64,000 nucleotides of DNA from Candidatus Magasanikiibacteriota bacterium (GCA_041674805.1 JBAYVA010000002.1:184294-248293); one strand, 5' to 3'; numbered from the stretch's first letter, positions 3,123 to 38,215 are shown. The notes: a model not told the origin generated them from the letters alone. Numbers and translations are program-made.

Positions 3123-3196
3123 ACAATTAAACACTTCGTTACCTGATCATTTGAATACTCTAAAACCTAGTAACCTAAAACCTAATAACTTAAAAC

Positions 3197-3224
3197 AATC
3201 TCTTTGCGGAGATTGTTTTTGTTT
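3197..3224 (+). terminator. Rho-independent terminator after the surface-protein gene.
   Basis: aatctcTTTGCGgagatt followed by gtttttgttt. Confidence 0.6.
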
Positions 3225-3382
3225 GGGTGATTGATTGGTAGTGTGATTAGGTGATATAGTGATAAAGTGACAGATTGATAAGGTTACAAAGTGCTTAAGT
3301 TGTGGAGTTAAGATGTCTTGCCAGACTGTCAAAAATCTAGTATAATAGCTCTATAATTTTAGTCGTTTAAAATCATTAATTT

Positions 3383-3997
3383 ATGCATATTTCTTGGCTT
3401 GGCAATAGTGCCATAAAAATTCAGACAAAGCCTTTTGACAAAGATGTTACAATTGTCATAGATGCCTACAAACAAGCAAAAGGTAATTCCCCACGTAGTC
3501 TTACACCTGATATAGCTCTTTTTACTCATGGTGAAGAAGAGATTATTACTTTGTCAGGAGAACCTTTTATTTTTTCTACACCAGGTGAGATAGATGTAAA
3601 AGGTGTTTTAATTACAGCTGTTGAAGGTCATAATCCTGGTGAAATAATGTTGCGTATAGATGCAGAGAGTATGACATTGGTTCATGTTGGTATGGTAAGT
3701 AAACAATTGAATGCTAAACAAGTAGAAATATTGGCAGGTGCCGATATATTGTGTTTGCCTGTAGGACATCCAAATTCTTTTGATGCTGAGTCTGCTGTAA
3801 AAATGGTTACAGAGCTTGAACCTAGAGTAGTAATTCCTTATGCTTTTCATTCGGACAATGATCCTGATGCAAAAGCAATTGATGGTTTCTTAAAAGAAAT
3901 TGGCAGTAAAGGTGTACAACCAGAAACAAAAGTAATATTGAAAGAAAAAGATTTACCACAAGAAGAAATGCAAGTAGTTGTATTGGAAAAGGAATAA
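3383..3997 (+). CDS. MBL-fold metal-dependent hydrolase (UPF0173-like).
   Basis: The N-terminus 'MHISWLGNSAIKIQT', then 'ALFTHGEEE' and a 'VGHPNSFD' segment resemble beta-lactamase-fold hydrolases. Confidence 0.55.
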   Translation: MHISWLGNSAIKIQTKPFDKDVTIVIDAYKQAKGNSPRSLTPDIALFTHGEEEIITLSGEPFIFSTPGEIDVKGVLITAVEGHNPGEIMLRIDAESMTLVHVGMVSKQLNAKQVEILAGADILCLPVGHPNSFDAESAVKMVTELEPRVVIPYAFHSDNDPDAKAIDGFLKEIGSKGVQPETKVILKEKDLPQEEMQVVVLEKE

Positions 3998-4020
3998 ATT
4001 ATCTATTTATCTAAAATAGT

Positions 4021-4662
4021 ATGCCTGTCAGCAAAAAGAGCCCTAAAAAAGCTTCCAAAAAACAATCTAAAAGCAAAAAAATAGCCAAAAAAACTGTTGC
4101 TAAAAAGGTAAACAAAAATGATAAAGAAATGCAGGAAATAAAAAAAGCTGTGAAAGATTTACCAAATATTTTAGCTCAAGAATTCAAAAATATTTCTGTT
4201 GAAAAAACTTTGGATATAAAACCAGTATTGGTTGCTCGTGAAGAAAAATCAATTCCTTTCGATGTTGCCAAAACTCCAGAAATTTCTGAGGTTTATATTG
4301 CCCCCAAAAATAGTCGTTTGTGGCTTTGGTCTGCTGTTAGTTTGTTTACTGTTATTATTTTAGCTTTATGGGTTTTGAGTGTAAGTAATTTATTTTATAA
4401 TTCAAAAAATTCACCAGATAATCCTTTGGAATCTTTGAAAGGTAGCAAAGAAGAATTAAAAGGGATATTCAAAAATTTTGAAGATAGTAAACCTACTACT
4501 ACCATAAAAGATATTATTGGAGAAAGCATGTTTACTACTTCTACGGTGTCTAGTACATTGAGTACGACTACTGTAGATGTAAAAAAAATTGAAGAAGCTA
4601 TATCTGGTTTGTTTGTAAGTAGTAGTGATAATAATTTAATAGTAACAAATACAAAAGAATAA
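4021..4662 (+). CDS. Hypothetical membrane protein with a Lys-rich, histone-H1-like N-terminal tail and a single TM helix.
   Basis: Starts MPVSKKSPKKASKKQSKSKKIAKKTVAKK; the hydrophobic segment is LWLWSAVSLFTVIILALWVLSV. Confidence 0.5.
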   Translation: MPVSKKSPKKASKKQSKSKKIAKKTVAKKVNKNDKEMQEIKKAVKDLPNILAQEFKNISVEKTLDIKPVLVAREEKSIPFDVAKTPEISEVYIAPKNSRLWLWSAVSLFTVIILALWVLSVSNLFYNSKNSPDNPLESLKGSKEELKGIFKNFEDSKPTTTIKDIIGESMFTTSTVSSTLSTTTVDVKKIEEAISGLFVSSSDNNLIVTNTKE

Positions 4663-4684
4663 TAGTGAAATTAATTAAAAAAAT

Positions 4685-7192
4685 ATGGCACGTTTGAAAA
4701 GTATTATAAAATCAAAAAGTAGCACTGAAGAGAGTGCTGTGGAGGGAACTATTGTCGAAAAAATCGAACCTATCAATTTGGTGAAAGAAATGGAAACATC
4801 TTATTTGGATTATGCTATGAGTGTTATCGTTTCTCGTGCTTTGCCAGATGTGCGCGATGGTCTAAAACCTGTGCATCGTCGTATTTTGTATGCTATGTGG
4901 GAACTTGGTCTCAAACATAATTCTAAGTTTCGTAAATCAGCGCATGTGGTTGGTGGCGTAATGGCCAAATTCCATCCGCATGGTGATAGTGCTATTTATG
5001 ATTCGTTGGTACGTATGGCCCAAGATTTCAATATGCGTGAAATGTTGGTAAATGGTCAAGGTAACTTTGGTTCAATGGACGGAGATGGTGCTGCTGCTAT
5101 GCGTTATACAGAAGCCAAACTTCGTGCGATTGCTGAAGAATTGATTTTTGATATTGAAAAAAATACTGTAAATTTTTCACCTACTTATGATGGCTCTTAT
5201 AGAGAACCAAATGTTTTGCCTGCCAAATTACCAAATTTACTTTTGAATGGTAGTATGGGTATTGCGGTTGGTATGGCTACAAATATTCCTCCACATAATC
5301 TGACAGAACTTTGTGATGGTATTATGGCCTTGATTGAAAATCCAAAATTAGGAATTGAAGAATTAGGAAATTATATCAAAGGACCAGATTTCCCAACTGG
5401 TGGTATTATTTATAACAAAAAAGATATTGAAGTAGCTTATGCTACTGGACGTGGTGGTATTGTGATGCGTGCTAAAACAGATATTCAAGAATCTGAAAAA
5501 AATGATAAAATGCAAATTATCATTACCGAAGTTCCTTATCAAGTAAACAAAGCAACTTTGATAGAAAAAATTGCGAGCTTAGTACAAGAAAAGAAAATTG
5601 AAGGTATCAAAGATTTGCGTGATGAATCAAACAAAGAAGGTGTCAGAATTGTGATTGAGTTGAAAAAAGATTCTTATCCAAAAAAAGTTTTGAACAAACT
5701 TTTCAAATTAACAGAATTGCAAACAACTTTTCACGTTAATATGTTGGCTCTTGTAGATGGTATTCAGCCTCGTGTTTTGAATTTGAAAACTATTTTGGAA
5801 GAATACTTGAAACATCGTCAAATAGTTGTGCGTCGTCGTACTCAATTTGATTTGGATAAAGCTTTGGATAGAGCTCATATTTTGGAAGGTTTGAAAAAAG
5901 CTTTGGACAAAATTGATCTTATTATTGCTCTTATTCGAAAATCAAAAGACAAAGATGAAGCCAAAATAAATTTGATGGAAAAATTTTCTTTTACCGAAAA
6001 GCAAACTATGGCAATTTTGGAAATGAGATTGCAACAACTTGCTAATTTGGAACGTCAAAAAATAGAAGATGAACTTAAAGAAAAACAAAAATTGATTGCA
6101 GAATTAGAAGCTATTTTGAAGAGTGAAAAAAGAATTATGAGTATTATCAAATCTGAAGTAGAAACTATTAGACAAGTTTATGGTAATGCTAGACGTACTC
6201 AAATTGTTTCTCATGGTGTCAAAGAATTTAATATTGAAGATTTGGTACCAAATGAACCAACTCTTATTATCTCTACTCGTGATGGTTATATCAAACGTTT
6301 GCCTCCAGATACTTTCAAACAACAAAGCCGTGGTGGCAAAGGTGTGATTGGTTTGACCACCAAAGAAGAAGATGTTGTAGACAAAATTATTTCTACCAAT
6401 ACTCATGATAATATTTTGTTTTTTACTACACGTGGTCGTGTATTTCAATTAAGTGCTTATGATATACCTTTGACTGCTCGTACCTCAAAAGGACAAGCTT
6501 TGGTAAATTTCTTACAACTTGCACCAAATGAAAAAGTTTCTGTATTTTTGTCACTTGCTAATTTGAGTAGTTATGAATCATTAGTGATGGTGACAAGTAA
6601 AGGTAATATCAAAAAAACTAAGATTGAAGATTTTAAACACGTTCGCAAATCTGGTTTGATTGCTTTAAAACTAAAAGAAAATGATTTGTTGGAATGGGTA
6701 CAACCAACAGCTGGTAACAATGATGTGATGATTACTACTTCTATGGGTCAATCTATTAGATTTAGAGAAAAAGATGTTCGTCCAATGGGTCGTACTGCTT
6801 CCGGTGTACGTGCTATCAAATTAAAATCAACAGATGAAGTAGTAGGTATGAGTATTTTGGATAATAGTTTGGTAAAAATGAAAGTCTTGGAATTGTTGGT
6901 AGTCTCTGAAAATGGTTTAGGCAAGAAAACTAAAGTCAATGAATACAAAGTGCAAGGTCGTGGTGGTAGTGGTATCAAGACGATGGCTGTTACTTCCAAA
7001 ACCGGTAAAATTATTAGTAGTCAGATGGTAAATAGTACTGAAGAAAAAGATATTATGATAATTTCGGTCAAAGGACAAGTCATTCGTACTTCTCTTAAGA
7101 GTATTTCTACTCTTGGCAGAGCGACTCAAGGTGTTCGTATTATGCGTTTCAAGCAAGAAGGGGACAAAGTAGCAGCGATAGCATTTGTTTAA
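4685..7192 (+). CDS. gyrA: DNA gyrase subunit A.
   Basis: YAMSVIVSRALPDVRDGLKPVHRRILYAM and the catalytic-Tyr region; 835 aa with C-terminal beta-pinwheel repeats. Confidence 0.95.
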   Translation: MARLKSIIKSKSSTEESAVEGTIVEKIEPINLVKEMETSYLDYAMSVIVSRALPDVRDGLKPVHRRILYAMWELGLKHNSKFRKSAHVVGGVMAKFHPHGDSAIYDSLVRMAQDFNMREMLVNGQGNFGSMDGDGAAAMRYTEAKLRAIAEELIFDIEKNTVNFSPTYDGSYREPNVLPAKLPNLLLNGSMGIAVGMATNIPPHNLTELCDGIMALIENPKLGIEELGNYIKGPDFPTGGIIYNKKDIEVAYATGRGGIVMRAKTDIQESEKNDKMQIIITEVPYQVNKATLIEKIASLVQEKKIEGIKDLRDESNKEGVRIVIELKKDSYPKKVLNKLFKLTELQTTFHVNMLALVDGIQPRVLNLKTILEEYLKHRQIVVRRRTQFDLDKALDRAHILEGLKKALDKIDLIIALIRKSKDKDEAKINLMEKFSFTEKQTMAILEMRLQQLANLERQKIEDELKEKQKLIAELEAILKSEKRIMSIIKSEVETIRQVYGNARRTQIVSHGVKEFNIEDLVPNEPTLIISTRDGYIKRLPPDTFKQQSRGGKGVIGLTTKEEDVVDKIISTNTHDNILFFTTRGRVFQLSAYDIPLTARTSKGQALVNFLQLAPNEKVSVFLSLANLSSYESLVMVTSKGNIKKTKIEDFKHVRKSGLIALKLKENDLLEWVQPTAGNNDVMITTSMGQSIRFREKDVRPMGRTASGVRAIKLKSTDEVVGMSILDNSLVKMKVLELLVVSENGLGKKTKVNEYKVQGRGGSGIKTMAVTSKTGKIISSQMVNSTEEKDIMIISVKGQVIRTSLKSISTLGRATQGVRIMRFKQEGDKVAAIAFV

Positions 7193-7244
7193 GATGCGGA
7201 TAAATGCAGATTTGAACGCTGATTTAAGCAAAATTTTTAGAAAG

Positions 7245-7272
7245 GACTCGTTATAAAGACGGGTCTTTTTTT
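7245..7272 (+). terminator. Rho-independent terminator after gyrA.
   Basis: gactcg-ttataaaga-cgggtc followed by ttttttt. Confidence 0.65.
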
Positions 7273-7640
7273 GTAGCAGATACAGCCATCAGCAAATACA
7301 GCAGACTCAGCAGATTAAGCAAATATAAATGTTATTATCACCTAATCACTTTGTCACCTAAACACTTGATCACTTTATCACTTAAACACTCTAACACACC
7401 TAAAACCTAGTTCACCTATAACCTAACACCTAATACCTAGAACCTAATTCACCTAAACTCCCTTGACAAATAAAAAGTTTTTTGATATATTAGGCAAGCC
7501 TCAAAAGCCTTTATTTTAGGCAAAAAGGTAATTATTTATCCCCAATTTGGGGGCTTAGGTTTACTAATTTTGATACGTGTTACGTGTCTTGTGTTATGTG
7601 ATCCTGGGTTAACTTGCGAGAAATCGCGTTTTATTAAAAT

Positions 7641-8822
7641 ATGTCAAAACAAAATTTTGAAGAACTTTTGAAAGACTATTTTGCTAACATTCCAAAAGTG
7701 AATGATTTAGTAAAAGGAAAAGTTATCGCTATTGATAAAGGTGAAGTACGTGTTGACGTCAACGGTATTATCGTTGGTGTGGTACGTGGACCTGAACTTT
7801 TCACAGAATCAAAAGAATTCTCAGATATCAAAGTAGGTGACGAAGTAGAAGCTACTGTTATCGAAGACGAAAATGAAAACGGTGAAATGGAATTATCTTT
7901 CCGTGTCGCTGGCAACAAATTGGTCTGGAACAGAATGGCAAAAAATGTACAAGAAGGTACTATTGTCAAAGCAAAAATATTGGCAGCTAACAAAGGTGGT
8001 TTGATGTTACAATCAGATGCTTTGGTAGGTTTTATGCCTGTATCACAATTGAATCCAAACAATTATCCACGTGTTCAAGGTGGTGACAAAAATAGAATTT
8101 TGGAACACTTGAGAAAATTCATTGGTGAAACTATCAAAGTAAAAGTTATCAATGCTGACATGGATGGAGAAAAACTTATTTTCTCTGAAAAAGAAGTTTG
8201 GGAAGAAGAACAAAAAAATGTATTAGATTCTTTCAAAGTAGGTGATATCGTAGAAGGTGAAGTAAGTGCTCTTACATCATTTGGTGCTTTCATCAAATTT
8301 GGAAAAAATTTAGAAGGTCTTGTACATATTTCTGAAATCGTTTGGCAAAGAATTAGTCACCCTCGTGAAGTGTTAAAAGTAGGTGATAAAATCAAAGCTC
8401 AAATTATTGATTTGAACAAATCAAAGATTTATTTGTCAATCAAGAGATTGGTAGATGATCCTTGGAAAAAAGTAAAAGATACTTATAAAGTTGGTCAAAT
8501 TATCAATGCAGAAGTTCACAAAATTGAACCATTTGGTCTTATGGTCAAACTTGATGAAGAAATTCATGGTTTAGCTCATATTTCTGATTTGAGTGAAAAA
8601 CGTGTACCAGATGCAAAGATGCTTCTTTCAAAATTCACTGTTGGTCAAAAATATAATTTTGAAATTATTTCTATTGAACCAGCTGAACACCGTTTAGGTT
8701 TGAAACTTGAAGGTGTAAATAAAAAAGAAGAAAAGAAAGAAGTTAAAGCTGAAGAAAAAGTGGAAGAAAAAAAAGAATCAGCTCCAGCTGAAGCTCCTGT
8801 TGAAAAAGAAGAAAGTAAATAA
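7641..8822 (+). CDS. rpsA: 30S ribosomal protein S1.
   Basis: Four S1-domain repeats (GKVIAID..., G(D/E)IVEGEV..., VGDKIKAQIIDL...) and an acidic Lys/Glu-rich C-terminus. Confidence 0.9.
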   Translation: MSKQNFEELLKDYFANIPKVNDLVKGKVIAIDKGEVRVDVNGIIVGVVRGPELFTESKEFSDIKVGDEVEATVIEDENENGEMELSFRVAGNKLVWNRMAKNVQEGTIVKAKILAANKGGLMLQSDALVGFMPVSQLNPNNYPRVQGGDKNRILEHLRKFIGETIKVKVINADMDGEKLIFSEKEVWEEEQKNVLDSFKVGDIVEGEVSALTSFGAFIKFGKNLEGLVHISEIVWQRISHPREVLKVGDKIKAQIIDLNKSKIYLSIKRLVDDPWKKVKDTYKVGQIINAEVHKIEPFGLMVKLDEEIHGLAHISDLSEKRVPDAKMLLSKFTVGQKYNFEIISIEPAEHRLGLKLEGVNKKEEKKEVKAEEKVEEKKESAPAEAPVEKEESK

Positions 8823-8833
8823 TATTTACAAAA

Positions 8834-8870
8834 TAAAAAAATCGTCTTGAAAGAGACGATTTTTTATTTT
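8834..8870. terminator. Bidirectional rho-independent terminator (rpsA on + / photolyase on -).
   Basis: aaaaaaatcgtctt-gaaa-gagacgattttttatttt. Confidence 0.7.
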
Positions 8871-9077
8871 TAATTAGTATTTACTTTTGTACTTTATGTC
8901 CTTACTTTTTATAACTAAAAAGTAACAAAAAGTTTTGAGGGGAAAAGAACTCGCTTGTGTTGCCAAGGGCAAAATAATCATTGGCAAACAACGAAGCTCA
9001 GACAGTTTCCCCCTCAAACTCCCCTTGGGTTATTTAAAATAGAGGAAATTGTTTAGTTGAATTAATAATTTTTATTT

Positions 9078-10418
9078 TCAAATAAATTTTTTAATATAGC
9101 TATTTACATCAAATTTATTTTTGCAACCATTATAATTCATATAACGTATTTTGCCAAAAACTTCTCTCTCAAACCAAGCTCTGTCATGTACACCAGCGAT
9201 AGACCAAGCGACACCGACGTAGCCATTTGGATCACGACCATCTAGTTCATATTTATCGTTTAAATATATCGCAATTTTGAAAGCTTCTTTTGCAGATTTA
9301 CTCCATTCCAAAATTTTCTTGGCCCAGTACATACGCATATAACCGTGCATTTTGCCTGTTGTCACCATTTCTTTTTGAGCAGAGTTCCACAAGTCGTCAT
9401 GAGTCTTGGCTTCTTCAAATTGTTTTTTGCTATATAGATATTCACGTTTGTCTTGTGAGTGTTCTTGCAAAGTTGTCAAAGCCCAGTTTGGTGCTCCTTT
9501 TAGAGAATCATAGTTTGGATTATAAAAACAATAATTATCACTTAGCTCACGTCTGACAATCAATTCTTCCAAAAAAGTTTCTTTGGCTGTTTTGCTAGCT
9601 TCGGATTTGTTTATTTCTAGAGCAATTCTTTGAGCGGAAATTTGTCCAAAGTGTAAGTAAGGAGACAAATTGGAAACAGCATTTTTGTTTGGATCATTTT
9701 TGTCTAAGTGATATTGATTTAGAGAATTTTTTATAAAACTTTTTAGTTGTTGTTTGGCAAAATTTTCGCCTGAGGATAACCAATCAATAGGTTTTACATT
9801 TTTGTCCACCTCAATCTTTTTGTAAACATTCTTCCAGTTTATTTTTTTTGCTTTGGTTGGAAAATTTATTTTTTGAATAACAACTTTGGGAAATTCAGTT
9901 AGATAATCTTTTAGTATTTTGTTTATTTTTGGTCTAAGAGTATAAGCTCCATATTCTTGCTTGTTTGAAGCTACAAAACAGGGAACAATATTGTGGGCGT
10001 CAACTTCTAAAAAAGGTATCTCAATATTTTTGATAATACTATTTTTCCAATTTCTATTTATTTTTAGTGGTGAGAAATCAGAAACGATAATACCAACTTT
10101 GTTTTTCTTTACAAATTTTGGAATCTCTTCTTCGGCCTTGCCCCAAGTCAAAAAAAATGGGATATTATATTTTTTTAGTTCAGTTTCCAAAGTTTGTAAA
10201 CCTTTTAGCATGAAATCGTATTGTCGCAAAGTTGCCCCAAGGAATGTTGGTACTAGATTGAAGACTACTGCAACAGGAGCTTCATTTTTTTGTCCCGCTT
10301 TTAGAGCGTAGAGCAAAGCCCAATTGTCATGCACACGCATATCACGACTCATCCAATAGACAATAGCGCCTTTTTTATATTCAAAATTGTTTAGTTGTCG
10401 GCTTCTGTTTGGGAGCAT
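9078..10418 (-). CDS. phr: Deoxyribodipyrimidine photolyase, class II (CPD photolyase).
   Basis: 'YWMSRDMRVHDNWALLYA' is the class II signature region; 446 aa with a Trp-rich FAD-binding C-terminal half. Confidence 0.8.
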   Translation of the reverse strand: MLPNRSRQLNNFEYKKGAIVYWMSRDMRVHDNWALLYALKAGQKNEAPVAVVFNLVPTFLGATLRQYDFMLKGLQTLETELKKYNIPFFLTWGKAEEEIPKFVKKNKVGIIVSDFSPLKINRNWKNSIIKNIEIPFLEVDAHNIVPCFVASNKQEYGAYTLRPKINKILKDYLTEFPKVVIQKINFPTKAKKINWKNVYKKIEVDKNVKPIDWLSSGENFAKQQLKSFIKNSLNQYHLDKNDPNKNAVSNLSPYLHFGQISAQRIALEINKSEASKTAKETFLEELIVRRELSDNYCFYNPNYDSLKGAPNWALTTLQEHSQDKREYLYSKKQFEEAKTHDDLWNSAQKEMVTTGKMHGYMRMYWAKKILEWSKSAKEAFKIAIYLNDKYELDGRDPNGYVGVAWSIAGVHDRAWFEREVFGKIRYMNYNGCKNKFDVNSYIKKFI

Positions 10419-10421
10419 AAG

Positions 10422-10772
10422 TTATTTTGTTAAGTTTTCTTTTACTCTAAATTTTACCATTGCTGTTATCAAATCATAAGGTACGGACTCTTCCACAGGA
10501 AATTGGATAGCACCTTTTGATGTCTTATATTTTTTGAGTTTATTAGCAAATTTTGTAATGGCAGAAGGTCCAGGATAAAAGCCAATATGATTTTCATAAG
10601 CAGCAAAATGGACTAGATTTTTTTTCAATACAAAAGTAGGTATACCATAACTTATTTTTTCTGTAGCTTCTGTGGCATTTGCTATTATTATTTTTCTGAT
10701 AGATTGCAATATGTTTTGAATTTCTTTGGGAAAATTATTTATATAAGAATCTATGTCAGAGTATTTTTTCAT
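10422..10772 (-). CDS. DUF1801 (YdhG-like) domain protein.
   Basis: ISYGIPTFVLKKNLVHFAAYENHIGFYPGPSAI...FPVEE pattern. Confidence 0.55.
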   Translation of the reverse strand: MKKYSDIDSYINNFPKEIQNILQSIRKIIIANATEATEKISYGIPTFVLKKNLVHFAAYENHIGFYPGPSAITKFANKLKKYKTSKGAIQFPVEESVPYDLITAMVKFRVKENLTK

Positions 10773-11242: not shown

Positions 11243-11258
11243 TATTTATGTATATATT

Positions 11259-11462: not shown

Positions 11463-11582
11463 TTTAAATTTACTTTCACCTTCTTTTAATTGAGTTAATT
11501 TATCTTCTATTTTTGAATTAAATTTTTTTATAAATCTATCATCATCAAGAATATAATAATTTTGTTTTTCATTTTTTTTGCG

Positions 11583-11915: not shown

Positions 11916-11932
11916 CATATTTTTAAATTTAG

Positions 11933-12023
11933 CGGAGAGAGAGGGATTCGAACCCTCGGTCCCGATATGATCGGGACACCGCTTTTCGAGAGCGGCACCT
12001 TCAACCAACTCAGACATCTCTCC
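11933..12023 (-). tRNA. tRNA-Ser (anticodon CGA), a type II tRNA with a long variable arm.
   Basis: Reverse complement GGAGAGATGTCTGAGTTGGTTGAAGGTGCCGCTCTCGAAAAGCGGTGTCCCGATCATATCGGGACCGAGGGTTCGAATCCCTCTCTCTCCG. The acceptor GGAGAGA/TCTCTCC pairs fully, the anticodon loop is CTCGAAA, the variable stem is TCCCGAT/ATCGGGA and the T-arm is GAGGGTTCGAATCCCTC. Confidence 0.85.
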
Positions 12024-12041
12024 ATGTTAATTATACAGAAT

Positions 12042-13466: not shown

Positions 13467-13555
13467 AAATGAGAGAGGGATTCGAACCCTCGGTCCAGCT
13501 TGCGCAGAACAACTGATTTCGAGTCAGTCCCATTCGACCACTCTGGCATCTCTCC
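13467..13555 (-). tRNA. Second tRNA-Ser(CGA)-like gene whose 3' acceptor strand is replaced by unrelated sequence; possibly a pseudo-tRNA.
   Basis: Reverse complement GGAGAGATGCCAGAGTGGTCGAATGGGACTGACTCGAAATCAGTTGTTCTGCGCAAGCTGGACCGAGGGTTCGAATCCCTCTCTC, but then ATTTATACC follows instead of TCCG. The D-arm, anticodon arm (CTCGAAA) and T-arm are canonical. The last three acceptor pairs would be A-A, G-U and G-U. Confidence 0.55.
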
Positions 13556-13731
13556 ATCTTTTAAGTAATAAGCAAATTAAGCAGAATATGCAGAATAAGT
13601 GGCTTATTGTGTGTAAGCACCTTGTAAGCATTGTTAATGTTATTACAAATTAACCACAAAAGCAAGTTCATGTCTAAATTTGCCAAAAGCTCTTTTTTTG
13701 GCTATGATATATTTGCTTAATCAAATATATT

Positions 13732-15006: not shown

Positions 15007-15037
15007 TTTTAAACTAAAAATTTTGTTTGAGTTCAAA

Positions 15038-22554: not shown

Positions 22555-22592
22555 ATTTTTTCATTAAAACATGAAAACATAAAAACATTAAA

Positions 22593-22622
22593 ACAATCCC
22601 GATAAAATTGGGATTGTTTTTT
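22593..22622 (+). terminator. Rho-independent terminator after recA.
   Basis: caatccc-gataaaatt-gggattgtttttt. Confidence 0.7.
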
Positions 22623-22693
22623 GTTTGATAATTTTTTAACCACATAGACTTTTGACTTTATAAACTTGTAGACTTTATGAACTTCTAAAAACG

Positions 22694-22702
22694 TGATATA
22701 AT
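22694..22702 (+). promoter_or_regulatory. Extended -10 promoter element (TGaTATAAT) upstream of ftsK.
   Basis: tgatataat lies 16 nt before the ftsK ATG. Confidence 0.4.
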
Positions 22703-25210: not shown

Positions 25211-25780
25211 GATTGTTAAGATAGCTTTAATCTAGTTTTGATTTATTAGCTTTTGTGGATAAACCTGTGGCTAAAAATTATACTAGCTTAGTATACAATT
25301 TACTAATTGGCTTATTTAAGCCAATTTTGTGTTTATTTGACAAAAAGTTATCCACGTGTTCTCAATTTGACAAAAAGCATTTTTAAGTGTATTCTATAGA
25401 AGCTATCAGAAACTTCTTGAATTTGCGCAAAATTCGCTAGATTTAGCCCAAATTCTGGTATTATCGCCCCTATATTAGCGTCCAAGCAGGGGACGGACTA
25501 TCCGGATCAACATGGCTCAAGCATTCTGTCACAAATAATTGAACAGAGAATCCTTTTTTAAAAGAGGAGTTTTTTTGTTGTCGGAAATAGGATAAAAATA
25601 ACTTTTGTTAGCTGATAAATATAATCAAAATTTGATTGTAAAAATTAGTTAATAAACAAGTTATTTATTACATAAACAGGTTTAAAATTTCTGACAGAAT
25701 CAGAAATAAGTTTCTTTCTTTAATCGCGCAAATTAAAGTAAAAAACGCCTCTTTTTGTAGTTTTCATAAATAAAATATTT

Positions 25781-28700: not shown

Positions 28701-29239
28701 TTCCAACAGATGGTCAACTACAACTTTATGATGGACGTACTGGTGAACCTTATGATAATAAGACAACCGTTGGTTACAACTATATGTTGAAATTGAATCA
28801 TATGGTGGAAGATAAAATCCATCAACGTTCAATTGGTCCATACAGTCTTATCACTCAACAACCTTTGGGAGGTAAAGCACAATTCGGTGGTCAACGTTTC
28901 GGAGAAATGGAAGTTTGGGCATTGCAAGCTTATGGTGCTGCTTATAATTTACAAGAAATTTTGACTATCAAGTCTGATGATGTTCCTGGTAGATCAAAAG
29001 CTTATGAAGCTATTATCAAGGGTGAAGCTATTACCAAAGTAAATTTACCAGAATCTTTCAACGTTTTGATACGTGAAATGAAAGGTTTGTGTCTTGATGT
29101 AGAGCTACTTAAGAAAAATGAAAATGATGAATATATAGAAATTGAAGAAGATTCTAGAGTAGACAAAGATAGAAAATTTATAGATATAAATTCGGATATG
29201 ATTGGTAGATCTGTAGATAAAAATGATAGTAATGAATAA
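25781..29239 (+). CDS. rpoB: DNA-directed RNA polymerase subunit beta.
   Basis: 'GDKMAGRHGNKGV', 'NMQRQAVP' and 'LGGQRFGEMEVWAL'. Confidence 0.97.
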   Translation: MAPLYKRQALKTKERQFFTPIRDAISAPDLIEIQKSSYHWFFEEGLRELFDELSPITDFTGRDLEIYFEDYYIDEPKFDQVTCVKKNITFESPLRVNVRLVNKRANKTEKQEIYLGDIPLMTDRGTFIVNGIERVVVNQLIRSAGAFFTAESVRGRRFYGAKIIPNRGAWIEIETDQNNVLWIKVDRKRKVAATSLLRAFGFSTDEQIKELFKDVNNHPNIDYIENTLKKDAASNEDEGLIEVYKRIRPGDLATSENAKSLIHAMFFNFDRYDLGKVGVYKFGIKFNLGLQKEDYDNKDERVLSPEKLLLVLKEIIRLNVTQEEADDIDHLGNRRVRGVGELVQNRFRIGLARMERIIRDRMSTMDIDTLVPNKLINARPVISVIREFFMSSQLSQFMDQINPLAELEHKRRISALGPGGLSRDRAGFEVRDVHRTHYGRICPIATPEGPNIGLVGHLSTFAKINKFGFLETPYRKVINLVKNEAALTTGEISGIDVKGIVKVGEKITAEIAKKLEKEKTISEIQVKPHVSSEVVYLNSFQEERTITASATTPVDKDDYFIEERISARVNGEPQVIEAEKVSYIDVASNQILSVATSLIPFLEHDDATRALMGTNMQRQAVPCIKPEPPLVGTGVERIAALNSGYVMTAPANGEVTFVDGGKIEFTDAKGKVTTYNLSKYIRSNASSSINQRPIVTLGQKLKKGDPMTDGPSIKDAELSLGQNVLVAYMVWEGFNYEDAIIVSERLVKDDRYTSIHIEDYTISVRETKLGDEVITSDIPNVSEEKLRHLDSEGIVRIGAEVRSGDILVGKITPKGETELTPEERLLRAIFGEKARDVRDSSLYLEHGEQGKVIDVKVFSTENGDKLQPGVIKEVQVTVADMRKIQVGDKMAGRHGNKGVISRVVPASDMPFLEDGTPVDIILSPLGVVSRMNLGQLLETHLGLAANALGYKAATPVLNGITEEQIEEELIKAGFPTDGQLQLYDGRTGEPYDNKTTVGYNYMLKLNHMVEDKIHQRSIGPYSLITQQPLGGKAQFGGQRFGEMEVWALQAYGAAYNLQEILTIKSDDVPGRSKAYEAIIKGEAITKVNLPESFNVLIREMKGLCLDVELLKKNENDEYIEIEEDSRVDKDRKFIDINSDMIGRSVDKNDSNE

Positions 29240-29279
29240 AATAATCTAACTAAAATAATCTAACTTCTTAAAAAAAATT

Positions 29280-33203: not shown

Positions 33204-33223
33204 AATTATTGTTAATTGGAAGA

Positions 33224-33251
33224 ACTCCTCGTGAAAACGGGGAGTTTTTTT
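33224..33251 (+). terminator. Rho-independent terminator after rpoC.
   Basis: actcctcg-tgaaaa-cggggagt followed by ttttttt. Confidence 0.7.
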
Positions 33252-33407
33252 ATATAGCATAATATGCAGATTAAGCAAAATAAACAAAGTAAGTAACTTT
33301 ATGAACTTTTGACTTTATAACTTTATGAACTTATTTTGTTCTTGATTTTCCCTTCAAAATATGCTAAATTATATTCAACAAATAAGAATTATTTTAATCT
33401 AAAATAT

Positions 33408-34136
33408 ATGTCCGGACACTCAAAATGGCATAATATACAAGGTAAAAAAGGTAAAGCTGATAAGGCTCGTAGTAATTTGTTTACCAAATTGGCGAAAACT
33501 ATTACTGTAGCAGCTCAACTCGGTGGTGGCGACCCTGAGATGAATTTTTCTCTTCGTTTAGCAATTGACAAAGCCAAAGTTGGTAATATGCCCAAAGATA
33601 ATATTGAACGTGCAATAAAGCGTGGTACTGGTGAGTTGGAAGGTGGAACTTTGCAAGAAGTTGTTTATGAAGGTTATGGACCTGGAGGAGTAGCTTTACT
33701 TATTAAAACTGTTACTGACAATATCAATCGTACTATTTCAGAGTTGAAAGGTGTTTTCAATAAATATAATGCTTCTCTTGGTGCAAAAGGTTCTGTGCAA
33801 TGGCAATTCGAAAATGTGACGGTTGTTCGTATCACAGCTGAAGAAAAAGCAAAAATTAAAAATTGGGAAGAATCTCAACTTGAGCTTATGGATGCTGGAG
33901 TAGATGATATTCGTGAAAGTGAGGAAGGCGTAGAGCTTATTGGTGCTATGGATAAATTTCAATCTATTATGGAAGCTGTTGAAAAACTTGGGGTTGGTAT
34001 AGAAACTTCTGGTTTAGAGTGGCTTGCCAAAGAAACAATTGAACTTCCTGCAGACAAGTCTGAATCATTAGAAAAGTTAGTAGAAGCTTTGCATGATTTG
34101 GATGATATTGAGGATGTTTATACTAATGAACAATAA
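33408..34136 (+). CDS. YebC/PmpR-family probable transcriptional regulator.
   Basis: 'MSGHSKWHNIQGKKGKADKARSN' is the canonical N-terminus. The start is taken at the internal Met rather than the ORF-track start at 33336. Confidence 0.85.
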   Translation: MSGHSKWHNIQGKKGKADKARSNLFTKLAKTITVAAQLGGGDPEMNFSLRLAIDKAKVGNMPKDNIERAIKRGTGELEGGTLQEVVYEGYGPGGVALLIKTVTDNINRTISELKGVFNKYNASLGAKGSVQWQFENVTVVRITAEEKAKIKNWEESQLELMDAGVDDIRESEEGVELIGAMDKFQSIMEAVEKLGVGIETSGLEWLAKETIELPADKSESLEKLVEALHDLDDIEDVYTNEQ

Positions 34137-34137
34137 A

Positions 34138-34191
34138 GGCTTACAAAGCTTACTAGGCTAACAAGGCTAACAAGGCTTACAATGCTAAAAA
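34138..34191. repeat. Six tandem 9-mers (GCTTACAAA/GCTAACAAG type) directly after the YebC-family gene stop codon.
   Basis: ggcttacaa agcttacta ggctaacaa ggctaacaa ggcttacaa tgctaaaaa. Confidence 0.8.
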
Positions 34192-34256
34192 TTAGAAATT
34201 GAAAATTAATTCATTGTTTGAAAATTTAAAATTTCTAAATTTCTAAATTATAAAAT

Positions 34257-34754
34257 ATGTCCAAAAAAAATGAACGTATCTTAGGTGTGGATCCTGGCTT
34301 CGGTCGCATCGGTTGGGGAGTGATTGAAAACAAAAAAGGCAAATGGGTTGGTGTGGCATATGGTTGTATTGAAACTGACAAAAAAGCTGATTTCGTGACA
34401 AGATTAGAAGAAATTAGTATTGATTTGACTGCTATAATAAAAAAATATAAACCAGAGTTTAGTGCGGTCGAAGAATTATTTTTTTACAAAAATGTGACGA
34501 CAGCTATCAAAGTTGGACAAGCGCGTGGAGTTATTTTACTTACTTTGAAACAACAAAATGTAGTTGTATACGAATATACTCCTTTGCAAATAAAGCAAAG
34601 TATTACCGGTTATGGTCGGGCTGAAAAAGGGCAGTTGCAGCGTATGGTAAAGATGATGCTTGGGGTGAAGAAAGCAATCACTCCCGATGATGCTGCAGAT
34701 GCTTTGGCCGTGGCATTGACTTGTAGTACTGGGTTGAGGATGCTTAGAATGTAA
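34257..34754 (+). CDS. ruvC: Holliday junction resolvase RuvC.
   Basis: 'ILGVDPGFGRIGWGVIE' with the catalytic Asp/Glu pattern. Confidence 0.85.
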   Translation: MSKKNERILGVDPGFGRIGWGVIENKKGKWVGVAYGCIETDKKADFVTRLEEISIDLTAIIKKYKPEFSAVEELFFYKNVTTAIKVGQARGVILLTLKQQNVVVYEYTPLQIKQSITGYGRAEKGQLQRMVKMMLGVKKAITPDDAADALAVALTCSTGLRMLRM

Positions 34755-34765
34755 TATATAAAAAT

Positions 34766-35104
34766 ATGGATAATAATATAACTCCAAAGATGTCTTTTTT
34801 TAAGAGGATAAAAGATCCGATAGCTTTAAAAATTTTACTTTTTGCATTTTTATTTTTTATATTTTCGAAAATAATTGTTAAATTAGCTAATTTTTTAAAT
34901 TTGTCTAGTATCGATCTTGTTTTTTTGTGTTTGTTTTTTGCATCATATACTACGTTTGTAATGTTGGTAATTTACTTTATACTATTTTTAATAAAACCAG
35001 GGCTAATAAAAAAAGACTTTTTTAAGTCGGTATTTATTTTTTTTATAAAAGTATTTATTATTTTTATTTTAATTATAGGTTTTTTTTCTAGTTTTATGGG
35101 GTAG
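34766..35104 (+). CDS. Hypothetical small membrane protein.
   Basis: 112 aa with three hydrophobic helices. Confidence 0.35.
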   Translation: MDNNITPKMSFFKRIKDPIALKILLFAFLFFIFSKIIVKLANFLNLSSIDLVFLCLFFASYTTFVMLVIYFILFLIKPGLIKKDFFKSVFIFFIKVFIIFILIIGFFSSFMG

Positions 35105-35170
35105 ATAAACTACTCTGTAAATCAAAAAACACCAGCTCAATCGAGACTGGTGTTTTTAAATTTAAAAAAA

Positions 35171-35662
35171 TTATTTAGTCTTTACTACATAAGTCCTAGC
35201 CAACAAATCATGCCAAGCTCTTTTTTGTGGCTCAAATCCAGCCCAGATGAAACCAATGAAAAATGGAACAGCACTAACTATTGTAGAGAAAAAACGTATA
35301 AAAGATTGTGATGTATTAATATTTTCTCCTTGTTCATTTACAATTTTTAGTCCTAAAATAATTTTGCCAGGAGTAGCTGATTTCCAAATCCAAAATCCTA
35401 TAATGTAAGTCATAGGCACTATAACTTTCCATCCAGTATAAGTGAAGGCTAAACCAGCAGGTCCAAGACTACTTGCCCCAAAGAAGAAACCTATTATATA
35501 TAGTCCAACACAATCTAGAATAATCGCCAAAAATCTAATCCAAAATCCAGCATATTGTCTTTCCTCAGGTTTTACATTTATAGTTGTTGGTGTTGGTATT
35601 GTGCTAGGTGTATCCATTTTTGAATTTAATACTTCTGTGTTTTGTTTTGGTTGTGTTTCCAT
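35171..35662 (-). CDS. RDD-family membrane protein.
   Basis: 'ILGLKIVNEQGENI...RAWHDLLARTYVV' is a typical RDD C-terminus. Confidence 0.65.
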   Translation of the reverse strand: METQPKQNTEVLNSKMDTPSTIPTPTTINVKPEERQYAGFWIRFLAIILDCVGLYIIGFFFGASSLGPAGLAFTYTGWKVIVPMTYIIGFWIWKSATPGKIILGLKIVNEQGENINTSQSFIRFFSTIVSAVPFFIGFIWAGFEPQKRAWHDLLARTYVVKTK

Positions 35663-35788
35663 ATAGTATGTTAATAAGTAAATATATTATTATATTATCA
35701 TTGTTTATATATTTTTGACAACAGTCATCTGGTTTTTGTTTATTAGATATGATAAAATATACATATATTAAATTATAACAAAAAATTT

Positions 35789-36799
35789 ATGTCTAAAAAA
35801 ATAAAAATTGCTATCAATGGTTTTGGTAGAATAGGTCGTCATGCTTTCAAAGTTGCCATGACCAAAAAAAATTTGGAAGTAGTAGCTATCAATGATTTGA
35901 CTGATACTAAAACTTTGGCGCACTTGCTCAAATATGATACTGCTTATTCAAAAACTAATTTGAAAATAAGTTTTGATGAAAAAAATCTTATCGTCAATGG
36001 TAAAAAAATACCATGTTTTGCGATGCGTGATCCAAAAGAATTACCTTGGAAAAAGATGTCAGTAGAGGTAGTGATTGAATGTACTGGCGTGTTTTTGACC
36101 AAAGAATTAGCTGGTTTACATTTACAAGCTGGTGCCAAAAAAGTTGTTTTGTCAGCTCCTGCTAAAGGTGATGATATTACTACTTATGTACGTGGTTTGA
36201 ATTGTGAAAGCTACAAAAAAAACAAAGAAACAATTATTGATAATGCTTCTTGTACTACCAATTGTGCTGCACCAGTGATGAAAGTATTAGAAAGTGATTT
36301 TGGTGTAGAAAAAGCAATGTTAACAACAATTCATTCTTATACAGCAGACCAAAATTTGCAAGATGGTCCACACAAAGATTTGCGTCGTGCTAGAGCTGCT
36401 TGTCAAAATATTGTACCAACTTCTACCGGTGCTGCCAAAGCTACTACGAAAGTTGTGCCAGAATTACAAAATAAATTTGATGGTCTAGCGATACGTGTGC
36501 CGACTATTACAGGTTCTTTGACAGATTTTACTGTTTTATTGAAAAAGAGTGTTACAAAAGAAGAAGTAAACAAAGCTTTGATAAAAGCAAGTAAAACTTA
36601 TTTGAAAGGTATTTTGACTACAACAGAAGAACCTATAGTTTCATCAGATGTTATTGGCAATGTTTATTCTTCTATTGTGGATTTGGAATTGACAAATGTA
36701 GTTGGTGGTAATTTGGTAAAAGTAATTTCTTGGTATGATAATGAATGGGGTTATGCTAATAGATTGGTAGAAATGGTGGAGATAGTGGGAAAAAACTAA
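35789..36799 (+). CDS. gap: Glyceraldehyde-3-phosphate dehydrogenase.
   Basis: 'KIAINGFGRIGR' Rossmann motif and the active-site 'SCTTNC'. Confidence 0.95.
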   Translation: MSKKIKIAINGFGRIGRHAFKVAMTKKNLEVVAINDLTDTKTLAHLLKYDTAYSKTNLKISFDEKNLIVNGKKIPCFAMRDPKELPWKKMSVEVVIECTGVFLTKELAGLHLQAGAKKVVLSAPAKGDDITTYVRGLNCESYKKNKETIIDNASCTTNCAAPVMKVLESDFGVEKAMLTTIHSYTADQNLQDGPHKDLRRARAACQNIVPTSTGAAKATTKVVPELQNKFDGLAIRVPTITGSLTDFTVLLKKSVTKEEVNKALIKASKTYLKGILTTTEEPIVSSDVIGNVYSSIVDLELTNVVGGNLVKVISWYDNEWGYANRLVEMVEIVGKN

Positions 36800-36867
36800 A
36801 GAGGAATGAGGAACGAGTAATGTGGAATGAGGAATCAAAATATTAAATTAAAAAATTACAAAAAGGG

Positions 36868-36966
36868 TTCTCCCCCTATTAGGGGGAGTTAGAGGGGGTC
36901 CATCTTTGAACAAGACGTTTTATCTTATAAAAGACCTCCCCTAGCCCCTCCTAATAGGAGGGGGAT
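36868..36966. repeat. GC-rich palindromic interspersed element, copy A (about 100 nt).
   Basis: tctccccctattagggggagttagagggggtccatctttgaacaagacgttttatcttataaaagacctcccctagcccctcctaataggagggggattc. The terminal hairpins are CCCCCTAtTAGGGGG and CCCCTCCTAaTAGGAGGGG. Confidence 0.8.
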
Positions 36967-36984
36967 TCATAAAATTTATTTTTT

Positions 36985-38181
36985 ATGAAGACTATTAGTA
37001 AACTAAAAGATCTTACAAATAAAATTGTACTTTTAAGAGTAGATTACAACGTTCCACTAAAAAAAGGTGAGATTTTGGATGATGAAAAAATTGTAAAATC
37101 TTTGCCAACCATAAGAATGTTGCAAGCCAAAAAAGCTAAGATTATTATAGTTACTCATTTGGGACGTCCTGAAGGCAAAGTAGTAGCTTCTTTGAAAGTA
37201 GATCCCATAGCTGTAAGATTGGGTGAGTTATTAAAACAAAAAATTGTAAAATTGGATACCAAAGATTGGTCAAAAAATAAAAATGACAAAATCCGTTTGG
37301 ATTTGATTACGACAGTAGATGCTTTGCGTCCAGCTGAAGTCGCTATGATGGAAAACATTCGTTTTTCACCAGATGAAGAAGATAATAAAGGTGATTTGTC
37401 ACAAGAATTGGCTAATCTTGCAGATATTTTTGTACTAGATGGTTTTGCTGTTGCTCATCGGGCGGATGCCTCTGTTGTTGGTGTAGACAAATATTTACCT
37501 AGTTATGCTGGCTTACTTTTGGAAACAGAAATAAAAATTTTGACAAAAGTTTTGAAAAATCCAAAAAAGCCTTTTGTTTCTATTATTGGTGGCATAAAAG
37601 CAGAAACAAAAATTCCTGTGATGAAAAATTTGTTGAAGACAAGTAATCATTTATTGATTGGCGGAGGTATTGTAAATACTTATTTGTATGCACTTGGTTA
37701 CAAAGTAGGAGCTTCTATTATTGATAAAGATTATGCTCAAGAAATTTTGAAATATTGTAAAAATAAAAAAGTAGTAAAACCTTTGGATGTAGTGGTAGGG
37801 GATATAAAAGGTAAAAAATATTTTGTCATGGATATAAATGAAAAATTCAAAATTACTGACAAAAATTTAGCAATTTATGATATTGGTCCAAAAACTATTC
37901 ATGAATTTTCTAAAATTATCAAAAAAGCTAATACCATTATCTGGAATGGAGCCATGGGATATTTTGAACAAAATCCGTATCAATATGGTACTTATAGTAT
38001 AGCTCGTTTGGTAGCTAGTAGATCAAAAGGTAAAGCTTTTGCTGTGGTTGGTGGAGGAGAAACAATTTTGAGTTTGGAAGCTGTAAAGATGACAGAATAT
38101 GTTGATCATGTTTCTACTGGTGGTGGTGCTATGCTTGAATTTTTGTCTGGTAAAAAATTGCCTGGATTAAAAATATTATAG
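36985..38181 (+). CDS. pgk: Phosphoglycerate kinase.
   Basis: 'LLRVDYNVP' N-terminal motif and the 'GGGA' hinge; 398 aa. Confidence 0.93.
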   Translation: MKTISKLKDLTNKIVLLRVDYNVPLKKGEILDDEKIVKSLPTIRMLQAKKAKIIIVTHLGRPEGKVVASLKVDPIAVRLGELLKQKIVKLDTKDWSKNKNDKIRLDLITTVDALRPAEVAMMENIRFSPDEEDNKGDLSQELANLADIFVLDGFAVAHRADASVVGVDKYLPSYAGLLLETEIKILTKVLKNPKKPFVSIIGGIKAETKIPVMKNLLKTSNHLLIGGGIVNTYLYALGYKVGASIIDKDYAQEILKYCKNKKVVKPLDVVVGDIKGKKYFVMDINEKFKITDKNLAIYDIGPKTIHEFSKIIKKANTIIWNGAMGYFEQNPYQYGTYSIARLVASRSKGKAFAVVGGGETILSLEAVKMTEYVDHVSTGGGAMLEFLSGKKLPGLKIL

Positions 38182-38215
38182 TTCACAGTTCGGAGTTCAT
38201 AGTTCATAGAAAAAT

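Follow-up and report, generated by a model that had tools for sequence, protein, structure and literature searches.

The spacers of a 64,000-nucleotide stretch of DNA from a Candidatus Magasanikiibacteriota bacterium (GCA_041674805.1, JBAYVA010000002.1:184294-248293; the whole of this stretch is called the window below) contain arrays of short tandem repeats with contiguous units of 7, 8 or 9 bp, which are strongly enriched in non-coding DNA, recur in several unit families, and are rapidly replaced between related species. We lean, by a modest degree, towards the idea that these arrays are degenerate long-unit simple sequence repeats (7-9-bp units) that are born by slippage and turn over quickly, like the short tandemly repeated repetitive (STRR) sequences of cyanobacteria. 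Most of the arrays probably have no sequence-specific role, while a minority seem to have been retained or recruited and to be under constraint, at the level of either DNA or RNA.

Arrays were defined with Tandem Repeats Finder (TRF; unit of 6-20 nt, at least 3 copies, score of at least 40) and compared with a simple gene map. They cover 468 of the 8705 non-coding bp of the window (5.4%) and 79 of the 55295 coding bp (0.14%), which is an approximately 38-fold difference. When the spacers were shuffled 200 times with their dinucleotide composition preserved, the array coverage was 9 bp on average and 102 bp at most, against 440 bp observed (about 50 times the mean), and 7 spacers carry an array where the shuffles predict 0.25. 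The preliminary description of these arrays, which was made from the sequence alone, had itself named base composition as the artefact that could undo its claim; the claim withstands both the comparison with coding DNA and the dinucleotide shuffles, which rule out this artefact. TRF reports an array at each of the seven places that had been listed, and inspection of the sequences confirms them. The arrays are indeed non-coding and distinct from CRISPR, since their units are of 7-9 nt and contiguous, whereas CRISPR repeats measure 24-48 nt and alternate with unique spacers of similar length. On the contrary, the period of 9-12 nt that had been announced has to be corrected: the units measure 7 nt in the arrays that follow gap and pgk, 9 nt in the one that follows yebC, and 8 nt behind the surface-protein gene, gyrA, recA and rpoC. 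The arrays consist of 3-17 units and the copies seen by TRF are mostly degenerate (65-90% matches). Perfect identity between units is limited to 29237-29265 and 34229-34249. The arrays of the window would thus be decayed versions of long-unit simple sequence repeats.

The phenomenon is general to the spacers of Patescibacteria, and it is not tied to particular genes. In 55 loci from this group, the arrays cover 2.9% of the non-coding and 0.18% of the coding DNA, whereas 26 loci of other lineages, mostly Chloroflexi, that came from the same search give 0.36% and 0.31%, respectively. An independent set of 20 rpsA loci gives 2.1% versus 0.29%, with the same period spectrum. In the Patescibacteria loci this spectrum has its maximum at 7 (25 arrays), followed by 8 (13 arrays) and 9 (11 arrays). 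Pairs of inverted arrays that form hairpins, as described below for the window, are also found in loci L006, L015, L025, L046, L047 and L090. We also note the presence, in locus L045 from a distant member of the Patescibacteria, of about 34 consecutive CAnnnAAn 7-8-mers (270 bp, 9449-9715) in the divergent spacer upstream of yebC. This array shares the exact 16-mer TAAACACTTGATCACT with positions 7356-7371 of the window, and it stands alone in that some of its unit positions are significantly better conserved than others (p = 0.0085).

The arrays of the window keep to the DNA that separates a stop codon or a terminator from the promoter that follows, as had been proposed, or from the following start codon. 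They occupy three types of places: from the stop codon to the terminator (for example 3147-3196 and 22561-22595), from the terminator to the next promoter (3232-3310, 7275-7462, 22645-22685, 33266-33332 and 42474-42496), and between cistrons that are not separated by a terminator (34136-34256, 36801-36836 and 38178-38212). The more specific statement that they directly follow stop codons is correct for only about half of the arrays: it applies to those that begin at 22561, 34136, 36801, 38178 and 57531, but not to those at 3232-3310, 7275-7462, 22645-22685 and 33266-33332, which come after a terminator and before a promoter. About half of the arrays are inside transcribed 3' or intercistronic regions, five of them end 0-10 bp from a -35 hexamer, and only about 5 of the 13 good promoters of the window have an array upstream, so that promoters do not depend on arrays. 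The promoters are canonical, of the sigma-70 type, and the terminators are intrinsic.

The idea that each spacer has a unit of its own does not hold for most units, since four families recur in several spacers. The word ACTTTATGAACTT is found exactly at 22672, 33296 and 33320, so that the unit of the rpoC spacer does recur upstream of ftsK, as had been noticed; a shorter version of it makes up the -35 region at 42474-42496, and the AGTTCA/AGTTCAT units that follow pgk correspond to the TGAACT/ACTTTATGAACTT family in reverse complement. The GCAGAWWAA family is present at 7275-7326, 13563-13598, 33266-33292 and 57531-57575, with GCAGA always on the + strand and with an exact GCAGATTAAGCAAA at 7310 and 33266. 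ACCTAA units are common to 3147-3196 and 7397-7446, and members of the CACCTAAAACCTA family are found both at 3172 and over 7397-7446, which bears out the kinship that had been seen between the units following gyrA and those following the surface-protein gene. Last, the GTGATA units (3243-3293) are the complement of the TATCAC units (7335-7390).

The window has a G+C content of 32% and a steady, positive GC skew, and nearly all of its genes are on the + strand, on which all the array coordinates given here are read. The identities of the genes for the fn3 surface protein, gyrA, rpsA, recA, ftsK, yebC, ruvC and chorismate mutase were confirmed; for rpoB/rpoC, gap and pgk, the confirmation comes from the genes tabulated for an identical contig. 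Arrays also adjoin the chorismate mutase gene and a hypothetical gene, both of which are upstream of the array, and a glyoxalase-family gene located directly downstream; the proposed tie to highly expressed genes is therefore not confirmed.

In the fn3 surface-protein gene, the 3' untranslated region contains ACCTAAA-type units with a period of 7-8 (3147-3196; TRF 3160-3196, period 7/15). The core of an intrinsic terminator (3192-3220, aaaacaatctc / gagattgtttt and a T run) lies between these units and a second repeat arm, which is made of about ten GTGATAAA-type 8-mers (3232-3310; TRF 3243-3293, period 8/16), the complement of the TATCAC units. The portion 3232-3275 pairs with 3147-3196, so that the two complementary arrays and the terminator make a single long imperfect hairpin (the fold of 3140-3300 has an energy of -40.2 kcal/mol, z = -3.7), and the second arm ends 8 bp from the promoter TTGCCA-17-TATAAT (3318-3346). 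Directly 3' of the gyrA terminator (7243-7272), six AGCAGAWWM units with a period of about 9 (7275-7326) are followed by the largest array of the window, sixteen 8-mers over 128 bp (7335-7462), which begins with eight WWWWCACY units and continues with ACCTAA-type units. Slicing this array into units reveals a strict 8-bp register; the TRF rows over 7335-7447 have periods of 8/16/24 and then 7/14. It abuts the rpsA promoter, TTGACA-17-TATATT (7463-7491), without any gap. Further downstream, the conserved 5' leader of rpsA contains four TACGTGT-type heptamers (7572-7600) which had not been listed in the preliminary description, and for which TRF detects an array in the related locus L103. Four GCARAWWAA 9-mers, also absent from that list, lie between a tRNA-Ser gene and a promoter at 13680 (13563-13598).

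After the stop codon of recA there are four CATNAAAA units (22561-22595; TRF 22562-22595, period 8, 4.2 copies, 88% matches), the last of which fuses with the A-tract of the terminator stem (terminator 22590-22620). From the recA terminator to the extended -10 element of ftsK, TGaTATAAT (22694-22702), GACTTTAT and TGAACTT units are spaced by 7-9 nt (22645-22685; TRF 22655-22684, period 8-9). A perfect 14-mer, TAAAATAATCTAAC, which was not listed either, is repeated 2.1 times (29237-29265, 100% matches by TRF) over the rpoB stop codon and the rpoB-rpoC spacer. The rpoC terminator (33220-33249) is followed by three 9-mers, GCAGATTAA, GCAAAATAA and ACAAAGTAA (33266-33292), then by about five copies of ACTTTATGA-type units (33294-33334, TRF period 8-9), which stop 8 bp short of the promoter of yebC (TTGATT-17-TAAATT, 33342-33370), a gene whose start codon is at 33408. 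The yebC-ruvC intercistronic region is occupied by six AAGGCTTAC units that begin at the yebC stop codon (34136-34190; TRF 34136-34186, period 9, 5.7 copies), and by GAAAATT / AAATTTCT 7-8-mers that extend to the ruvC start codon (34190-34256; TRF rows 34186-34256). Five GAGGAAT-type heptamers begin 1 nt after the gap stop codon (36801-36836; TRF 36801-36835, period 7, 5 copies) and read GAGGAAT GAGGAAC GAGTAAT GTGGAAT GAGGAAT. The ATAGTTC heptamers fill the entire spacer between pgk and the chorismate mutase gene (38178-38212, 4.6 copies; TRF 38178-38209, period 7), and three TGTTTTCA units come after the stop codon of the latter gene (38482-38506, by TRF). At 42474-42496, the last of the CCACTT / CGACTT / TGACTT units provides the promoter at 42490-42519 with its -35 hexamer, TTGACT. 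About five GCAGANACA 9-mers begin at the stop codon of the hypothetical gene (57531-57575, by TRF) and are adjoined by 3.5 copies of TATCTCA-type units (57579-57615, by TRF); like the array behind the chorismate mutase gene, these two were additions to the earlier list.

A search with the YebC protein assigns the window to Candidatus Magasanikbacteria, a lineage of the Patescibacteria or Candidate Phyla Radiation (CPR). The closest YebC relatives are in loci L001, L002, L003 and L005 (89-96% protein identity) and in L004 (78%). In nucleotide sequence, the genes of these five loci share 82-88% identity with those of the window, or 55-72% if only 4-fold degenerate sites are counted. The spacer upstream of yebC is usable in five relatives, all of which keep the terminator and the promoter TTGATT-17-TAAATT, while the sequence from the terminator to the array cannot be aligned among relatives. 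The ACTTT array itself is kept in four lineages: L002 is identical to the window at 34 of 38 positions, L001 is shorter by exactly one unit, and the array of L003 is interrupted by a 20-nt insertion. At the site of window positions 33266-33292, L003 has 4.2 copies of AGCAGAATA. The six AAGGCTTAC units after yebC are found only in the window, and their place is taken by AATTTTC units in L002 and L003. The 65 nt that precede the ruvC start codon, on the contrary, are almost 100% identical in L002, as compared to 70% at 4-fold degenerate sites, and the core of this segment is kept in L003 and L005. After gap, GRGGAAT heptamers are present at the same site in L002, L005 and part of L004, with GGGG runs in L002 and L005. 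After pgk, the window has four AGTTCAT units where L002, L003 and L005 have four to five GRGGAAT units, with the same site and the same period of 7; L005 has one heptamer more than L002 and L003.

For the gyrA-rpsA spacer, close rpsA relatives (L084, L085 and L103) were retrieved in one metagenome scan. Their S1 protein is 89-92% identical to that of the window and the terminator, the promoter and the 150-nt rpsA leader are kept, but the 128-bp array (7335-7462) is absent from all three; L084 has GCARAWWAA 9-mers after the terminator. The higher-order periods of 16 and 24 bp in the 128-bp array suggest a recent duplication of blocks. The rpsA leader (7495-7640), which contains the four UACGUGU-type heptamers and small hairpins, has a mean identity of 84% with L084 and L103; it is a candidate site for autoregulation by S1. 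The CATNAAAA unit of the recA array is also present in L090. The only other assemblies of this genome that were found (ENA ERZ27247358 and Logan SRR6484325, which may come from the same sample) are 99.995-100% identical to the window, and the arrays that they share with it are identical, so that they are uninformative about polymorphism. Copy number and sequence thus vary between related species at conserved sites, as is observed with STRR sequences, while the arrays near yebC and ruvC and the one in the rpsA leader look conserved above the neutral level in these alignments. A sequence of about 20 nt, TCCGCCTTGGGTGGA or a variant of it, makes a mini-hairpin that is inserted inside arrays of three relatives and occurs once in the window (window 38519-38533; L002 10458-10472; L003 about 8955-8975; L004 about 6785-6805; also L084, upstream of rpsA); it may be a very small mobile palindrome.

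We infer from these observations that the arrays are born by slippage and that they are mostly neutral. Replication slippage or unequal exchange would duplicate a short word, the resulting array would gain or lose whole units or blocks of units, and point mutations would blur it until it is eventually lost or replaced. Since a unit of 7 or 8 bp ruins a reading frame, such arrays would be tolerated only in the DNA between stop codon and terminator, between terminator and promoter, or between cistrons; as the tolerant DNA of a compact genome is limited to these stretches, this would give the impression that the arrays are placed "after stop codons". Slippage repeats agree with the spectrum of periods, with the restriction to non-coding DNA, with insertions and deletions of whole units and with replacement at the same site; they also agree with the youth of the largest array and with the absence of a physical property shared by all arrays. 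Those that seem to have been retained or co-opted are the hairpin arms at 3147-3275, the ACTTT array upstream of yebC, the AAATTTCT array next to ruvC and the TACGTGT array of the rpsA leader.

Several observations are less easily reconciled with neutrality alone. The density of arrays depends on the orientation of the flanking genes, by a factor of 2-3.5: it is 0.95 per kb in co-directional spacers, 0.46 in divergent ones and 0.27 in convergent ones; there is also a mild preference of the arrays for the edges of the spacers (p = 0.01-0.03). The same families recur in distant lineages of Patescibacteria: 7 independent lineages have ACTTT arrays, which are intergenic in every case, while CATTAAAA- and CAC-type 8-mers are found in the distant loci L045 (in the 270-bp array) and L090. 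The ACTTT arrays tend to be on the sense strand of the downstream gene (14 versus 5 independent arrays, binomial p of about 0.06), a bias that may come from replication asymmetry because nearly all genes are co-oriented, and about half of those found outside the window end 0-14 nt before a start codon. The conservation of the arrays next to yebC and ruvC in L002, and the GRGGAAY heptamers directly 3' of stop codons, which parallel the GGGAATC repeats of Xanthomonas and Nostoc (PMC4692102), point in the same direction.

The arrays could be regarded as platforms in cis for a binding protein, which we consider possible, if doubtful. At the level of RNA, periodic motifs of 7-9 nt would recruit the multi-domain protein S1, or another RNA-binding protein, in a host that is devoid of Shine-Dalgarno sequences, and ACTTT would resemble the epsilon element of phage T7, UUAACUUUA; at the level of DNA, a small repressor would bind short units cooperatively at or over the -35 hexamer, in the manner of the omega protein or of MetJ. 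In the window, Shine-Dalgarno-like words (GGAG, GAGG or AGGA) are missing from positions -20 to -4 of all 46 genes, and the 35 nt upstream of their start codons contain 81% A+T (43% A and 9% G), so that translation in this host seems to start without Shine-Dalgarno pairing. ACTTT arrays (with units such as TTAACTTTA) abut start codons in L046, L014, L012, L013, L025, L053, L087 and L094, the epsilon enhancer of T7, UUAACUUUAA, is matched by the ACTTT family (PMC9590205), and the TAACTGA repeats of bacteria that are poor in Shine-Dalgarno sequences have been proposed to bind S1, Csp or CsrA (PMC4679880). The four conserved UACGUGU units in the rpsA leader, the conservation above the neutral level next to yebC and ruvC, and the WATCAC core at 7335-7398, in strict 8-bp register up to the -35 hexamer, also agree with this idea. 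However, in the clade of the window the ACTTT arrays are upstream of the conserved -35 and -10 elements and thus outside the leader, unlike those of other lineages, so that the leader position expected of an epsilon- or TAACTGA-like element is found in those lineages but not in the window. The 35-nt segments that precede the 46 start codons show no excess of ACTT (8 observed versus 8.9 expected), and we rejected ACTTT as a general translation signal in this host. The spacing of the cores ranges from 7 to 9 within one array, at least 7 unrelated types of units would require several different binders, and close relatives lack the WATCAC-type array. A scan of small proteins of the window revealed no candidate binder, of the ribbon-helix-helix type or other. 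The search for a conserved core in the units, as a sign of a binding site, gave no significant result overall: the per-column mismatch test gives a Fisher combined p of 0.08, and only L045 has p < 0.01.

A more ambitious version of this proposal, which we think unlikely, is that Patescibacteria share a small vocabulary of arrays, specific in position and orientation (ACTTT before genes, GCAGAWWAA after terminators, GRGGAAY after stop codons, and CAC or CAY-A-rich 8-mers), which would serve as landing platforms for a protein with repeated domains. Its favoured candidate may be ribosomal protein S1, with one oligonucleotide-binding (OB) fold per unit of 7-9 nt; the arrays may then replace Shine-Dalgarno pairing, and S1 may regulate its own synthesis at the four UACGUGU units of the rpsA leader. 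We also looked for a property common to the RNA of all arrays. Most of them fold weakly, yet no more weakly than shuffled sequences of the same composition, and three fold better, which led us to reject a selection for unstructured RNA; there is no consistent RNA-folding signature across the arrays. If C-rich, G-poor arrays were loading sites for Rho (rut sites), backing up the intrinsic terminators or stopping antisense transcripts, this would suit the 128-nt array at 7335-7462, which contains few G (four, counted by eye), folds with only -0.9 kcal/mol and has a CA/YC step every 8 nt; a C-rich, G-poor and unstructured sense transcript is also predicted for 3147-3196 and 22561-22595, and the 270-bp array of L045 is similar. 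It is not so across all arrays: several, such as GAGGAAT and GTGATAAA, are G-rich on the sense strand, and C exceeds G on that strand in 29 arrays versus 17 among the 48 arrays of co-directional spacers, which is not significant (p = 0.10). We have therefore discarded Rho loading as a general function, and give it very little chance overall.

The functions that were put forward in the preliminary description fare no better. Shaping of the DNA or isolation of transcription units, by phased bends, UP-like elements or insulators, is in our opinion improbable, in spite of the five arrays that stop within 10 bp of a -35 hexamer and of the enrichment between co-directional genes. A-tracts bend DNA if they are repeated every 10-11 bp, and with periods of 7-9 bp, which do not keep step with a helix of 10.5 bp, the bends would cancel. 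Taking as the criterion for an UP element an A/T-rich block (> 85% A+T) at -38 to -59, counts by eye give this region about 60% A+T at the two strongest promoters (3318 and 7463), and about 82% in the case of yebC; moreover, the majority of promoters have no upstream array, and about half of the arrays are in transcribed 3' or intercistronic DNA. That the arrays are contingency loci, where slipped-strand changes of copy number would switch the expression of a neighbouring gene on and off, is hardly credible to us. Copy number does differ by whole units between related species and one array follows a surface-protein gene, but degenerate units (65-90% matches) are poor substrates for slippage, no array is within a reading frame or between a -35 and a -10 element, the flanking genes are mostly housekeeping genes (gyrA, recA, rpoC, gap and pgk), and the two assemblies are identical over the arrays that they share; the same argument has been used against phase variation in the case of the GGGAATC repeats (PMC4692102).

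A few other identities were considered and rejected. The arrays do not behave like DNA uptake sequences, since no 9-11-mer is over-represented. Neither are they LexA/SOS boxes, which the vicinity of recA, ruvC and ftsK could have suggested: the units are direct repeats rather than palindromes, and the recA promoter has no array. Known RNA families are no better as candidates, since at the gathering threshold of Rfam 15 only three tRNAs match in the window; with E-values up to 1, the additional matches are weak, far below the gathering scores, and none of them is on an array.

The window and its relatives contain further elements that are distinct from the arrays. A G/C-rich palindromic element of about 105 nt (CTCCCCCTATTAGGGGGAG ... 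CCCCTCCTAATAGGAGGGG) is present at 36865-36968 and, in the opposite orientation, at 51505-51612; in the relatives, it is found in the rpoC-yebC spacer of L001 (9860-9970) and in the gap-pgk spacer of L002, L004 and L005. It folds with -51.4 kcal/mol (z = -4.5), its mean column identity of 80% is above the neutral level, and it has no match in Rfam; it could be an element similar to miniature inverted-repeat transposable elements (MITE) or to repetitive extragenic palindromes (REP), or else a structured RNA. The motif GATCCCTCGnnGTATYCTC, which is part of a small hairpin ending with CTCGGGAT, occurs at 52477-52495, 57059-57077 and 57624-57642, whereas chance would predict no copy at all. The three copies precede the starts at 52507, 57097 and 57665 by about 10-25 nt, and they may represent a leader or operator element that is common to these genes. 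In the ftsK-rpoB spacer, the segment 25250-25600 contains the DnaA-box-like words TGTGGATAA and TTATCCAC, similar words being present in L001, L002 and L005; a block of about 150 nt in this spacer (25400-25590) is conserved in L002, looks structured and has no match in Rfam. This block could be the leader of rpoB or another RNA. A G/C-rich segment in the rpsA-photolyase spacer (8917-9077) is faced by a strong promoter-like sequence of the minus strand, TTGGCA-17-TATAAT (9157-9129), which is aimed inward, and the segment may encode a small RNA. Two minus-strand genes for tRNA-Ser(CGA), at 11932-12023 and 13467-13555, 1.4 kb apart, flank a Wzy_C (O-antigen ligase-like) gene; spurious open reading frames (ORF) of the mechanical ORF list overlie both of them. 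Last, some genes contain tandem repeats that are in frame: the fn3 surface protein gene has 6.4 copies of a 141-bp unit at 1-905 (85% matches), and the ORF at 58941-61535 (864 aa) has 2.5 copies of a 114-bp unit at 59374-59709.

If the arrays are indeed slippage repeats, they call for caution in annotation, since about 5% of the spacer DNA of the window and 2-3% of that of the sampled loci would be fast-evolving tandem repeat. Such arrays mimic regulation, and they should not be taken for operators, CRISPR remnants or phase-variation switches. They could also be used as markers for strain typing, and would allow the fidelity of replication to be followed in uncultivable organisms. If it is the minority reading that is true, the ACTTT, AAATTTCT and UACGUGU arrays would be the first cis-elements of translation or transcription to be proposed in a Shine-Dalgarno-free group of bacteria for which there is no genetic system.

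The arrays can be compared with several systems that are already known. The omega protein of inc18 plasmids binds WATCACW heptads and MetJ binds metboxes of 8 bp; both are ribbon-helix-helix repressors. Their operators resemble our arrays in that units of 7-8 bp, direct or inverted, follow one another without a gap beside or over a promoter and share a short conserved core, and the WATCAC / GTGATW core is present in the window units at 7335-7398 and 3243-3293. They differ from the arrays, which comprise many other types of units and are in many cases far from promoters; there is no cognate protein among the scanned proteins of the window, and the array at 7335-7462 is not kept in relatives. 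REP sequences and bacterial interspersed mosaic elements (BIME) are likewise located between co-directional genes, often at terminators, and some of our inverted array pairs also form long hairpins; however, the arms of these hairpins are tandem short units rather than a single conserved palindrome, and most arrays are unpaired.

The TAACTGA heptamers of marine Beggiatoaceae, cyanobacteria and Bacteroidetes are intergenic forward repeats found just before starts, in genomes that are poor in Shine-Dalgarno sequences (MacGregor 2015, PMC4679880). Their TAACT core is common to units of the ACTTT family (TTAACTTTA, ATAACTTTA), and in other lineages of Patescibacteria the ACTTT arrays abut start codons in the same manner. 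On the contrary, the ACTTT arrays of the window precede promoters and are outside leaders, and their units of 7-9 nt have variable linkers and no dominant exact heptamer. The GGGAATC repeats of Xanthomonas and Nostoc (GGGAATC / GGGGAYT, Rehm et al. 2015, PMC4692102) are found at most 50 bp from stop codons, between co-directional genes, and they vary between relatives at conserved sites. The GRGGAAY units present after gap, and after pgk in the relatives, are nearly the same unit in 4-5 copies, and here too length and sequence differ between relatives at a conserved site. Most arrays of the window are not G-rich, unlike these repeats, and the gap array of the window contains only GG runs (GAGGAAT) rather than the four or more runs of at least three G that define a G-quadruplex; a stable G-quadruplex is therefore unlikely in the window, while L002 and L005 have GGGG.

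The closest resemblance is to the repeats with units of 5-11 nt that have been surveyed across bacteria, among which heptamers dominate and for which polymerase slippage has been proposed (Mrazek 2007, as related in PMC4679880 and PMC4692102); according to the same two papers, the STRR heptamers of cyanobacteria belong to this class of long-unit repeats (Mazel 1990). Since intergenic arrays of this kind are known in cyanobacteria, Xanthomonas and Beggiatoaceae (PMC4692102, PMC4679880), the architecture seen in the window is less unusual than had been thought. As in these repeats, short units are arranged head to tail, heptamers are the commonest, non-coding DNA is preferred and the distribution among lineages is sporadic; copy number and sequence also vary between close relatives, slippage is the proposed origin and the function is unexplained. 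The arrays described here differ by their far more degenerate units (65-90%), by their shortness (3-17 units), by 8- and 9-mers that are as common as 7-mers in the window, by the coexistence of several families in one genome, and by their host, which belongs to the Patescibacteria (CPR). A full-text search of the literature found no description of such repeats in Patescibacteria, which are thus a new host lineage for a known, functionally unexplained class of repeats.

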